Positions 10,049-12,837 of a DNA stretch of 64,000 bases are shown here, one piece after another. The DNA comes from Candidatus Auribacterota bacterium (GTDB lineage Bacteria > Auribacterota > JAFGBW01 > JAFGJP01): the NCBI GenBank assembly GCA_023144635.1, contig JAGLFH010000037.1, forward strand, positions 26,489 to 90,488. The letters are read 5' to 3'. The translations under genes were made by a program, and so were the position numbers. The notes under the pieces are model-generated. The model worked only from the letters and a program-made list of their open reading frames with translations. It ran no database searches and was not told the origin of the DNA. Within the stretch, counting starts at the first letter, position 1. The number at the start of each line of letters is the position of its first letter.

Positions 10049-10711
10049 TTATCTTGAACGGGATTTTTCTATGTTTTTTTTGATTACCGAAAAATTTGAT
10101 GTCGAAGAACCTACCATATGCCCTTTTTTATCATATACGCTGACACTGGGTATAGATGTTATCTTGTGCTGTTTTGCAACAGGACTACCCCAATTATCAA
10201 TGTTTATCTTTCTTAAGATAACATCATCATATTTTTTTATTAGATCTTCAAGCTTAGGGCCCAACACTTTACACGGACCGCACCAATCAGCATAAAAATC
10301 AAAGACAACAACGTACCCCCTTACTGTATTACTTTTAATGTTTACCTTGCTGCCCTTTGATATGGTTTTTATTCTTGCAACATTACCTAATAATTTCTTT
10401 CTTGGCTGTGGACTTTCTTTTAAGCCTGGATCAGCTTCTTTTGCTTTAGAACCAGTTTTTTTTGACTGTATATAGACTCTTTTTATTTCTGAAACATTGA
10501 CTTTTTCTGTTTTATTATCACTCATCTTTACAAGATATCTTTTACCGTTAAAATACAATAACTTTCCCTTAATGACCTGACTGTCCTTTTTTATTATCAT
10601 GACAATCTGCTCAAACCCTTTGTTTTCACTGAAATAAATATTCTCTGAAAAATAAGAGCCTATTATGATTATCAGCAATACTACCATAATGAAAATTAAG
10701 AAATTCTTCAT
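10049..10711 (-). CDS. thioredoxin-domain protein, membrane anchored
   Basis: 220 aa; N-terminal TM; C-terminal FDFYADWCGPCK thioredoxin active site (WCGPC); AGGAAA SD. Confidence 0.7.
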   Translation of the reverse strand: MKNFLIFIMVVLLIIIIGSYFSENIYFSENKGFEQIVMIIKKDSQVIKGKLLYFNGKRYLVKMSDNKTEKVNVSEIKRVYIQSKKTGSKAKEADPGLKESPQPRKKLLGNVARIKTISKGSKVNIKSNTVRGYVVVFDFYADWCGPCKVLGPKLEDLIKKYDDVILRKINIDNWGSPVAKQHKITSIPSVSVYDKKGHMVGSSTSNFSVIKKNIEKSRSR

Positions 10712-10775
10712 ATTTTTTCCTGTGTTTTATATTAAATATTTTACTATAAATAACTTTTAGATTAAAGCTAAAGGA

Positions 10776-11474
10776 TCAATTGTCATACAGAAATGATATC
10801 CTCTTCTTTTTTCTGAAAAACGACAGCAAAAAGACCCCCATAATAAATCCTCCTATGTGAGCCCACCAAGCAACGCCTCCTGATGATAATGAATCTTGCG
10901 AAGACAAAGCTGAAAATATCTGTATAAGTAACCATAACCCAAAATAAAAAAATGCAGGAACTTCTAAAAAATAAGGTATGAAAAAAACAGGAACAAGGAC
11001 AACTATTCTTGCCCTTGGAAATATTAGCATATAAGCCCCCATGACAGCTGCTATTGCCCCTGAAGCACCTATTATAGGAACAGCTGAATGAATATTAAAT
11101 AAAAAATGTGCCATATTTGCAATAACTCCACAAAGTATATAAAAAACCAGAAACCCAACATGACCTACATGATCTTCCACATTGTCTCCAAAAAGCCAAA
11201 GCGTCCACATGTTCACAAAAAAATGCATCCACCCACCATGAAGGAACATATTTGTAATAAACGGTAATGGATTATACTGCAGAAGAGCTCTTTCCATTGC
11301 CCAATTAAGATCAATATAGCGGGCAGGAACCATACCGTAAATCGCAAAAAACCTCTGTAAAGCATCCTTTGAGAGTGATTTTTCATACAGAAAAACTAGA
11401 GCACTTACAATTATGATAGCCCCTGTCATAAGAGGAGGTTTTTGATGAGGGTTTATATCATTAAGTGGTATCAT
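10776..11474 (-). CDS. rhomboid family intramembrane serine protease
   Basis: 232 aa polytopic; GASGAIAAVMGAY (catalytic Ser motif GxSG) and AHIGGFIMG (catalytic His). Confidence 0.85.
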   Translation of the reverse strand: MIPLNDINPHQKPPLMTGAIIIVSALVFLYEKSLSKDALQRFFAIYGMVPARYIDLNWAMERALLQYNPLPFITNMFLHGGWMHFFVNMWTLWLFGDNVEDHVGHVGFLVFYILCGVIANMAHFLFNIHSAVPIIGASGAIAAVMGAYMLIFPRARIVVLVPVFFIPYFLEVPAFFYFGLWLLIQIFSALSSQDSLSSGGVAWWAHIGGFIMGVFLLSFFRKKKRISFLYDN

Positions 11475-11595
11475 ATCTTTAATTTTCTCTTACATTTACT
11501 ATAAGCTAACATCTTTCTAAATCAAATAATAATTATTATTATTGACCAAAACGTTTTCAAACATAATAATTACTCTAAATTTAAAGGAGGGCTTA

Positions 11596-11700
11596 ATGAG
11601 GGTAATTGAAGATGATTTTGAAGATGACCTAGGGGATGATTTTGAAGATAATGAAACAGATGATGATGCTGAAGATGATGATAACTATGACTATGATTAA
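11596..11700 (+). CDS. small highly acidic peptide (34 aa)
   Basis: ATG 11596 preceded by GGAGG with 5-nt spacer; MRVIEDDFEDDLGDDFEDNETDDDAEDDDNYDYD; followed by a perfect 16-bp hairpin plus T5 at 11751-11791. Coding status unproven. Confidence 0.3.
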   Translation: MRVIEDDFEDDLGDDFEDNETDDDAEDDDNYDYD

Positions 11701-11750
11701 TCTTTTGAAGACGAAGATAATCAAGATTAATGAGTGAATTTAATAATATA

Positions 11751-11791
11751 CTACAAAGGACAGCATTCAAATGCTGTCCTTTGTAGTTTTT
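11751..11791 (+). terminator. intrinsic terminator-like hairpin (16-bp perfect stem, 4-nt loop, T5)
   Basis: ctacaaaggacagcat-tcaa-atgctgtcctttgtag followed by ttttt; ends 8 nt before the rlmN ATG. Confidence 0.6.
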
Positions 11792-11799
11792 AGGTCACC

Positions 11800-12837
11800 A
11801 TGGAAAAAAATGACATAAAACTTATTGATACTGAAAAGCTAAAAGCCATTATGACATCAAATGGTTTTAAGGCATATAGAGCCTCCCAGATACAACACGC
11901 AATATGGAAAGAAGGCGCAAATACCTTTGAGATGATGCCCATTCCTTTAAACCTTAAAGATTTTCTTAAAAAACATTTCTATATTTATACTTGTAAGGTC
12001 ATAAATAAAAGTTCCAGTAAGGATGGAACCATTAAATTTCTTTTAGAATTTTTGAATAAAACATATATAGAAACAGTTTTTATTCCGTCATCATCACACA
12101 ACACACAATGCATATCATCCCAATCAGGATGCAAAATGAGATGTCGTTTTTGCGCAACAGGTGAAAGTGGTTTTAAACGAGATCTTTCAGCCGGAGAAAT
12201 AATAGAACAGATCCTGATAATACAGAAATTAACCGGAGAAAGTATCGGAAATATTGTTGTTATGGGAATGGGAGAGCCTTTTGAAAATTATAACAATTTA
12301 ATGCAGGCGATCCGTATCATAAATTCAAAACATGCTCTTAACATAGGAGCAAGAAGAATCACTGTTTCAACTGTAGGGATCCCAGAAGCGATAAAACGCT
12401 TTGCTGATGAAAACATACAGGCACGGCTTTCGATATCACTTCATGCAAGCGAAAATTCACTTCGCTCTCAAATAGTACCCATAAACAAAAAATATCCAAT
12501 AGAAGATATATTAAAAGCCTGTCGTTATTATAATAAAAAAGCAAAAAAATATGTCAGCTTTGAATACATCCTTTTAAAAGGGATAAATGACTCTGAAAAA
12601 CATGCAATATCACTTTCAAAAAGACTAAAGGGCTGGAAATGCAGAGTAAATTTAATTCCTTACAACCCTGTAAATTCATCAGAATTTATGCGATCAGATA
12701 ATGGTCAAATAAAAACTTTCAGTAACATCCTTAAAAAGTTCGGCATCAATACCACCATAAGAAAAGAAAGAGGCGTGGACATAAAAGCAGCTTGCGGCCA
12801 GTTAAAAAGTTCTTTTTTGAAAAACAAAAATACTTAA
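11800..12837 (+). CDS. rlmN: 23S rRNA (adenine2503-C2)-methyltransferase RlmN, radical SAM
   Basis: 345 aa; FKAYRASQ N-terminal motif, CxxxCxxC radical-SAM cluster (CKMRCRFCATG), GMGEP motif. Confidence 0.9.
   Translation: MEKNDIKLIDTEKLKAIMTSNGFKAYRASQIQHAIWKEGANTFEMMPIPLNLKDFLKKHFYIYTCKVINKSSSKDGTIKFLLEFLNKTYIETVFIPSSSHNTQCISSQSGCKMRCRFCATGESGFKRDLSAGEIIEQILIIQKLTGESIGNIVVMGMGEPFENYNNLMQAIRIINSKHALNIGARRITVSTVGIPEAIKRFADENIQARLSISLHASENSLRSQIVPINKKYPIEDILKACRYYNKKAKKYVSFEYILLKGINDSEKHAISLSKRLKGWKCRVNLIPYNPVNSSEFMRSDNGQIKTFSNILKKFGINTTIRKERGVDIKAACGQLKSSFLKNKNT

Follow-up and report, generated by a model that had tools for sequence, protein, structure and literature searches.

A conserved, strongly acidic small reading frame and an intrinsic terminator precede rlmN in an Aureabacteria-like lineage

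Directly upstream of rlmN in a 64-kb stretch of a metagenome-derived Candidatus Auribacterota bacterium genome (contig JAGLFH010000037.1; the whole stretch is hereafter called the window), we find a short, strongly acidic open reading frame (ORF) that is preceded by a sigma-70-type promoter and a Shine-Dalgarno (SD) sequence and followed by an intrinsic terminator hairpin. The DNA was re-read over 11200-12100, and these elements occupy the divergent intergenic region of 325 nucleotides (nt) between rlmN and its left neighbour, a rhomboid protease gene on the minus strand (10776-11474), in the following order:

11542 to 11570, plus strand: sigma-70-type promoter of the small ORF, TTGACC (11542-11547), 17 nt, AATAAT (11565-11570), score 10/12
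11585 to 11591, plus strand: SD sequence AGGAGGG, with 5 nt from its GGAGG core (11586-11590) to the ATG
11596 to 11700, plus strand: small ORF of 34 amino acids (aa), MRVIEDDFEDDLGDDFEDNETDDDAEDDDNYDYD, net charge -19
11701 to 11733, plus strand: putative in-frame acidic continuation SFEDEDNQD, then TAA TGA, read directly from the DNA
11750 to 11791, plus strand: intrinsic terminator, a 17-base-pair (bp) stem closing a 4-nt loop (11750-11787), together with a T run (11787-11791), -26.6 kcal/mol when folded alone
11800 to 12837, plus strand: rlmN, dual-specificity RNA methyltransferase (23S rRNA A2503 / tRNA A37 C2-methylase), matching the TIGR00048 equivalog with 397 bits (cut-off 290)

The small ORF, identified by direct reading and supported by synteny, by its substitution pattern and by a frame that is open at every locus compared, extends from ATG (11596-11598) to TAA (11698-11700) and comprises 34 sense codons. 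Asp and Glu make up 20 of the 34 residues of MRVIEDDFEDDLGDDFEDNETDDDAEDDDNYDYD (59%) and a single residue is basic, in agreement with an earlier note on this DNA, made from the letters alone, which had described an ATG at 11596 with GGAGG 5 nt upstream and a product of about 60 percent Asp/Glu. When all six frames of the whole window were searched for at least 14 Asp/Glu per 25 residues, the small ORF was the sole occurrence. Six contigs of the same strain carry the locus, gene callers reported the 34-aa gene in all six, and five of the six are identical over 11475-11800; the same-strain contig L003 (2676-3011) shows a single difference in 336 nt, AAT to CAT, which produces N19H in the small ORF. 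The acidic continuation beyond the stop codon resembles an internal segment of the ORF itself (SFEDEDNQD and DFEDNETD) and may be a relict C-terminus or a small duplication, and its own stop lies 19 nt upstream of the hairpin, similar to the stop-to-hairpin spacing of 15-23 nt in relatives.

The RlmN proteins nearest to that of the window beyond the same strain, P0002-P0007, are 53-59% identical to it, and the next are at most 50% identical. A small ORF is called directly upstream of rlmN on the same strand in all six of these relatives, with lengths of 40-55 aa and, on the P0002 contig, a call of 90 aa. DNA was readable for four of the six and for three closer variants, which gives eight readable loci (window, L008, L009, L011, L138, L014, L135 and L137) in five lineages (window, L008, L009, L011 with L138, and L014 with L135 and L137); the three variants (P0122, P0124 and P0123) came from profile searches with the peptides, which returned close variants of the inputs and nothing else. 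In every readable locus the order is promoter, AGGAGG, acidic ORF, 15-49 nt, terminator hairpin and rlmN, with small ORF, hairpin and rlmN in a common orientation, while the flanks vary: a rhomboid gene in the window and the L014 group, a nitroreductase gene in L008, L009 and the P0004 and P0006 contigs. At 48-50% RlmN identity (P0008 and P0010), rlmN abuts an unrelated upstream gene without a small ORF, and no close relative was found among GTDB genomes, where a pattern-based scan for the RlmN protein returned just Lactovum at 41% identity. Among the genomes compared, the unit of small ORF and rlmN is specific to an Aureabacteria-like clade.

The acidic ORFs of the relatives (L008, L009, L011/L138 and L014/L135/L137) encode 40-54 aa and include MLGDFEEYEDNYSNNADSDDNLDEDFDDSDDSDDDDYNYE; MGKRGLDDLDDDFKASIDEDDDIDEGSDEDEGDIDDEDTDADEDSDDEEYDYEE; MKSDYEDLDDDSPEELAVYDNDFEDGLFKDGFDFEKDDEFEYDDEEDDEF; MRANNFEKYDDDLLIDQESADMNSDENSNLEHNNDNYDDDDDYNYD. 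Across the readable ORFs, of 34-54 aa, the Asp/Glu share is 37-59%, and overall identity between lineages is just 24-40%, with what is common concentrated at the ends: an N-terminal hydrophobic or aromatic-acidic motif resembling (F/Y/L)-E-x-(Y/F/L)-D-D-D, and a C-terminal tip resembling DDDY(N/D)Y(D/E) in four of the five lineages (window, L008, L009 and L014), the L011 lineage ending in DDEEDDEF.

Comparisons within the close groups show how the frame evolves. The ratio of non-synonymous to synonymous substitution rates (dN/dS) of the small ORF is 0.23-0.53 in the trio L014/L135/L137 and the pair L011/L138, and synonymous sites change four times as often as non-synonymous ones (Fisher p = 0.0014, two independent pairs pooled). 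A clean one-codon deletion in L137 is an in-frame 3-nt indel, and the acidic frame is the sole frame free of stops in 8/8 loci. The GC content of rlmN ranges from 33 to 63% across lineages, and the acidity is kept while the Asp codons shift from GAT to GAC in the GC-rich lineage; the signal therefore lies at the amino-acid level and is not an artefact of GAT repeats. These comparisons show, at the level of sequence evolution, that the small ORF is under purifying selection as a coding sequence. An ORF that is short, of low complexity and without a database family could instead be a chance open frame in a GAT/GAA-rich spacer next to a stray or bidirectional terminator, but such a frame would not be expected to stay open at each of the eight loci while its start, SD sequence and C-terminal motif (4/5 lineages) are conserved, to show dN/dS below 1, or to persist over a 30-point range of GC content, and we assign this explanation a very low probability. 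The His-rich ORF on the minus strand (11570-11770), which had been described as the antisense shadow of the acidic codons, does exist, yet its frame is open in two of the eight loci against eight of eight for the acidic frame. Conservation upstream of rlmN in related genomes was the check that the earlier note had proposed, with loss of the frame in relatives as the result that would speak against a gene; every readable relative of the clade keeps the frame and its composition, and the end motif is kept in four of five lineages, so that the small acidic protein or leader peptide it had offered as one option is now well supported. On these comparisons, we conclude that the small acidic ORF is a real, conserved and lineage-specific gene.

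The expression signals of this gene are strong and similarly conserved. At the position equivalent to the window promoter, L008, L009, L011 and L014 carry TTGACA-17/18-(A/C)ATAAT, each scoring 11/12, and neither the close pair L011/L138 nor the trio L014/L135/L137 shows any variation in the promoter. AGGAGG precedes the ORF in all relatives, and when pairing with the anti-SD sequence was scored for 46 ORFs of the window (45 of at least 150 aa and the small ORF), the small ORF had the strongest SD of the 46, at -12.2 kcal/mol against a median of -4.75. A clear SD is absent in about half of the window genes. The earlier note had described rlmN as lacking an SD, and indeed it has AGG only upstream, at -3.6 kcal/mol against the anti-SD; because this value is near the median of the 46 ORFs, the weak SD of rlmN is ordinary in this genome. 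As a side observation, the 5' untranslated region (5'UTR) differs in length between lineages: the L014 sub-lineage (L014 562-615 and the L135 and L137 equivalents) has about 55 nt from the -10 box to the SD, nearly invariant across the three strains, whose small ORFs vary in the middle, and the other lineages have roughly 10-25 nt. The L014-group 5'UTR could be a structured or bound element.

The terminator is equally constant. The earlier note had recognised a perfect stem-loop with a T5 run to 11791, ending 8 nt before rlmN, and this description holds; the stem it had given as 16 bp from 11751 is in fact 17 bp from 11750. In the relatives the form is AAAAGACAGCGG-loop-CCGCTGTC followed by T8-9, present in all and preceded by an A/T-rich spacer of 15-23 nt, and folding energies of the hairpin span -18 to -27 kcal/mol across loci. 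The window contains a single copy of the hairpin core ACAGC...GCTGT, and the surrounding 251-nt region folds 4.6 standard deviations better than its shuffles (z -4.64). In an alignment of the hairpin from seven loci, pairing covers 89.7% of cells, and for 6 of the 17 stem pairs the window differs from the other loci at both partners, a result above that of 499 of 500 shuffles and of every slid control. In the window lineage the stem has been lengthened, through compensated changes, by taking in the A- and T-tracts on either side, and the U-tract left free has shortened to four: the first T of the T5 run is the last base of the stem, leaving four unpaired U before AGG. Termination may be leakier in the window than in its relatives.

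Several further observations concern the hairpin. After the conserved terminator, L138 (393-470) has a second hairpin, GGTATTC...GAATACC with T6, which makes a tandem terminator before rlmN; in the sister locus L011 (602-680) the additional hairpin takes a degenerate form. We considered whether the stem is an element specific to this locus and rejected the idea: a scan of metagenome DNA with CAGCGG-N3-8-CCGCTGTCTTTTTT matched more than 120 unrelated contigs, mostly from gut and soil. Since the pattern is common in unrelated contigs, the stem is not locus-specific, and its sequence is a generic strong-terminator form. No acidic ORF resembling the family was found upstream of those terminator matches, and no family members were gained. 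Four of the matching contigs (L050, L061, L070 and L090) have a Glu-rich ORF end, EEPEVIEKGKKEEGEEEE, just before a similar terminator, which probably forms the acidic C-terminus of some larger protein unrelated to the family. We also rejected the hairpin as a mimic of the tRNA or rRNA substrate by which RlmN could regulate itself, as the loops, judged by inspection, are of 4-5 nt and not conserved.

The identity of the downstream gene is firm. Besides passing the TIGR00048 equivalog model, the product scores below the cut-offs of the Cfr models, retains CxxxCxxC (GCKMRCRFC) and both catalytic Cys contexts (QCISSQ and AACGQL), bears the NCBI name RlmN of Candidatus Aureabacteria, and is 42-50% identical to RlmN of many other phyla. 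This bears on the possibility that the small ORF encodes the precursor of a RiPP (a peptide made ribosomally and altered post-translationally) that is modified by the downstream radical S-adenosylmethionine (SAM) enzyme. The layout of small ORF, hairpin and radical-SAM gene, and the layout alone, speaks for this possibility, and sboA-albA is a known case of precursor, partial terminator and radical-SAM maturase. Against it, the enzyme passes the RlmN equivalog model (397 vs 290 bits) with all catalytic Cys, none of the eight peptides contains a Cys, the window peptide shows no division into leader and core, and no protease, transporter or SPASM domain lies nearby, the neighbours being rhomboid or nitroreductase, thioredoxin and CN-hydrolase genes. 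As the downstream enzyme is RlmN by the equivalog model, a RiPP precursor is effectively refuted.

How, then, is rlmN transcribed? From the T run to the rlmN ATG (11800) there are 8 nt in the window (11792-11799), and 8-9 nt in the window and the L014 group taken together; the spacer between terminator and rlmN reaches 9 to about 70 nt in relatives. Because of the 8-9 nt spacing, an rlmN promoter could not fit in the window or the L014 group, and none of the readable loci has a promoter-like site between the terminator and rlmN. Weak promoter-like sites do arise within the ORFs from ATGA/GATAAT codon strings, all of them upstream of the terminator, and they leave this conclusion unaffected. 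As far as the sequences indicate, rlmN expression in the clade must pass through a strong terminator. It could be argued that the two genes are unrelated neighbours, the small gene ending at its own terminator and rlmN being expressed from a promoter that was not recognised here (very weak, or not of sigma-70 type) or a leaderless start, with a linkage that is accidental in one clade. The T8-9 tracts of the relatives and the second hairpin with T6 in L138 argue for very little read-through, and the terminator-rlmN spacer, at 8 to about 70 nt, diverges fast, as accidental neighbours would allow. The spacer of the window and the L014 group is nevertheless too short for a promoter, no promoter-like site follows the terminator at any locus, and adjacency and orientation are kept at only 53-60% RlmN identity amid different flanks, and we therefore consider independent expression improbable.

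If rlmN lies behind the terminator, the region upstream might act as a switch, as the earlier note had suggested in proposing a leader that works by termination and antitermination. We searched for the structures that such a switch would use. The best upstream duplex with either arm of the hairpin reached -4 to -16 kcal/mol against -18 to -27 kcal/mol for the hairpin itself (seven loci), and the competing pairing was no better than shuffles in three of the seven (L014, L135 and L138). The stop codon of the small ORF lies 15-49 nt before the stem, so a terminating ribosome cannot cover it. Pairing of the ORF region with rlmN -18 to +12 was no better than in shuffles at seven loci (fraction as good or better 0.08-1.0), and sequestration of the rlmN ribosome-binding site or start by the leader, of the kind seen in erm genes, was not found in these seven loci. 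A 7-bp pairing in the minimum-energy fold of the window, UGACCUA/UAGGUCA, was set aside as neither above shuffles nor conserved, and Rfam returned no family at threshold, with hairpin look-alikes alone below it. With no competing structure, a distant stop codon and no pairing with the start region, the defining element of trp-, erm- and mgtL-type leaders is absent. Of the earlier suggestion, the part that stands is that the hairpin lies within the only possible leader of rlmN, as no promoter-like site follows it; antitermination finds no support.

Comparison with known leaders sharpens this picture. As in the ribosome-mediated attenuators of trp, his and pyrBI, a predicted ORF lies between promoter and gene and a terminator follows the ORF, but neither an antiterminator nor an overlap of ORF and terminator was found. 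The pyrBI operon has a 44-codon leader ORF and an attenuator, and the likeness extends to a long leader ORF, followed by an intrinsic terminator before the structural gene, without amino-acid-specific control codons; the pyrBI leader ORF runs through its terminator, where a coupled ribosome blocks the hairpin, whereas the ORF here stops 15-49 nt before the stem. The ermCL and ermBL leaders likewise consist of a translated leader (here predicted) before a gene whose product methylates 23S rRNA close to the peptidyl-transferase centre, and ermK is controlled by transcriptional attenuation, with terminators in its leader. The erm leaders differ in lacking acidity, in depending on a ribosome stalled by an antibiotic and in using mutually exclusive hairpins to free the ribosome-binding site or prevent termination, none of which was found here. 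A compositional likeness exists to mgtL and mgtQ, which are described as short ORFs upstream of a regulated gene with Asp/Glu right after the start (Chadani 2017, via bioRxiv 10.1101/2021.02.02.429294; PMC8092293). All eight peptides of the present family have 4-6 Asp/Glu in residues 2-13, and their first 30 residues hold 5-8 Asp/Glu/Pro per 10-residue window. The mgtL and mgtQ ORFs have 8-17 codons and alternative stem-loops overlapping the ORF (bioRxiv 10.1101/2021.02.02.429294; PMC8092293), whereas the ORFs here have 34-54 codons, alternative stem-loops over the ORF were not consistently above shuffles across loci, and the downstream gene is not a Mg2+ transporter.

These likenesses give rise to an alternative in which the small ORF is a cis-acting, translation-sensing leader: the Asp/Glu-rich nascent chain would abort or pause the ribosome and thereby set read-through of the terminator by way of ribosome-polymerase coupling, Rho access or mRNA decay, without an antiterminator hairpin, and the peptide itself would have no function. 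Such a leader would account for a terminator within the obligatory leader of rlmN and for an ORF that always stands beside rlmN while other neighbours change. The 5-8 Asp/Glu/Pro per 10-residue window exceed the more than three per 10 residues that mark destabilisation-prone N-termini, which are depleted in bacterial proteomes (bioRxiv 10.1101/2021.02.02.429294), and the acidic upstream ORFs mgtL and mgtQ work in this way, serving as Mg2+ sensors (PMC8092293). Moreover, A2503, the target of RlmN, helps to relay nascent-peptide signals to the peptidyl-transferase centre, according to PMC10336011, which cites Vazquez-Laslop 2010 for this role of A2503 in nascent-chain signalling and also mentions ErmBL. 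Against such a sensor stand the lack of a conserved alternative RNA structure, which mgtL, mgtQ, trpL and ermCL all have; the stop codon 15-49 nt upstream of the stem; a length of 34-54 aa with conserved end motifs, which looks more like a binding peptide; and the strongest SD of the window, which a sensor would not need. We regard this alternative as unlikely but as the main contender. A more specific form, in which the acidic ORF is a test substrate whose completion or abortion, depending on ribosome integrity (m2A2503, Mg2+, polyamines), tunes read-through into rlmN, is in our estimate a decidedly long shot; if true, it would amount to feedback control of an enzyme that modifies the peptidyl-transferase centre and tunnel by a nascent-chain sensor with no antiterminator hairpin.

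Operon-internal intrinsic terminators (attenuators) are known to set expression ratios, for example in rplL-rpoB and rpsU-dnaG-rpoD of E. coli. Our preferred reading, which we hold with about even confidence, is that the locus is a two-gene unit of this kind, in which a strongly expressed gene for an acidic protein is followed by a terminator that ends most transcripts, rlmN is fed by read-through, and the peptide acts in trans as a polyanion. The near-consensus promoter and the best ribosome-binding site of the region would yield an abundant, 34-aa polyanionic and probably disordered peptide, and the strong terminator would end most transcripts as a short mRNA of about 215 nt capped by the hairpin. 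The smaller share of transcripts that reads through would be the sole source of rlmN mRNA, and because rlmN lacks its own promoter and has a poor ribosome-binding site, RlmN levels would be held to a small, constant fraction of those of the peptide. The E. coli operons share with this arrangement one promoter, a highly expressed first cistron, a hairpin with a U-tract and a promoterless gene for a low-abundance enzyme; they differ in that the first cistron here encodes a polyanionic peptide of 34-54 aa, and the read-through fraction here is a predicted one.

The peptide itself would most likely serve as a trans-acting polyanion or nucleic-acid mimic, with a basic RNA-binding protein as candidate partner, most likely the unusually basic RlmN of the clade or ribosomal components. 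The RlmN proteins of the clade (window and P0002-P0007) have net charges of +10 to +29 and isoelectric points of 9.2-9.8, against a median charge of +11 among 113 other RlmNs, a hint of a possible electrostatic partnership with the peptide. Acidic likenesses to the peptide are offered by eukaryotic DSS1/Sem1 and by the C-terminal acidic tip of SSB. It also resembles SutA (bioRxiv 10.1101/423384), MsyB (bioRxiv 10.1101/2025.02.25.640118) and DMP12 (PMC3643605) in being small, very acidic and predicted to be disordered, and in having aromatic residues within acidic runs that could dock on basic nucleic-acid-binding surfaces; it has no sequence similarity to any of these proteins and is far shorter than SutA, MsyB or DMP12. 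AlphaFold2 gave no secondary structure for the peptide (predicted local distance difference test 60, predicted template modelling score 0.12), which from a shallow alignment is weak evidence, and the peptide is probably disordered. It offers trypsin no internal cleavage site.

Searches with the peptide place it outside described families. It had zero matches at E up to 10 in Pfam, NCBIfam and PDB sequences and zero at E up to 1 in PHROGs; the window, L008 and L009 peptides are not in the 15-billion-protein collection that was searched, and a profile run against 1.84 billion representatives returned its own inputs alone, a weak negative since many such small ORFs are missing from protein collections. 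No description of this small-protein family, or of its fixed association with rlmN, was found in the searched libraries and literature, although the kinds of element involved (a small acidic disordered protein, an operon-internal terminator and a leader ORF) are already known.

Several points weigh against the two-gene unit with a trans-acting peptide. Asp/Glu-rich N-termini are poorly translated, being aborted, in E. coli (bioRxiv 10.1101/2021.02.02.429294), which is awkward for a protein made in bulk and is what would be expected of a sensor ORF. The peptide is never seen apart from rlmN, as a cis-acting leader also predicts. In close comparisons the central part of the ORF changes more quickly than the promoter, 5'UTR and terminator that belong to it, and the greater conservation of these elements points to selection on the expression signals as well as on the frame. 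The charge match of RlmN could merely mirror the Lys-rich proteomes of AT-rich genomes, the trans function and the partner are guesses, and among the six relatives the P0004 and P0006 contigs are known by gene call alone (47 and 55 aa).

These findings add an unannotated, conserved small-protein family for an uncultivated phylum. It is unusual that a conserved ORF should be 37-59% Asp/Glu from about codon 5, the kind of sequence that aborts translation in E. coli, and yet carry the best translation signals of its region, and that it should always stand beside the gene whose product methylates A2503, where the peptide tunnel begins. Whichever reading holds, the locus offers a compact system open to testing: were the peptide produced in quantity, the ribosomes of these organisms would tolerate sequences regarded as risky; were it not, the locus would represent a new type of leader for an rRNA-modification gene. 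A link between the small gene and ribosome function is an intriguing possibility.

The surroundings of the unit offer some minor observations. In the window, a promoter-like sequence on the minus strand, TTGAAA-17-AATAAT at 11560-11532, overlaps the promoter of the small ORF (window 11532-11570) and faces the rhomboid gene, and the two genes may share a single compact control region. Near the unit there is repeatedly a gene for a thioredoxin-domain protein of about 220-228 aa, on a side that varies (window 10049-11474, L009 3135-3821 and the P0004 contig): in the window this gene lies upstream, past the rhomboid gene, and on the L009 and P0004 contigs it lies downstream of rlmN. Genes for a CN-hydrolase and a response regulator likewise recur near the unit, in shuffled order.

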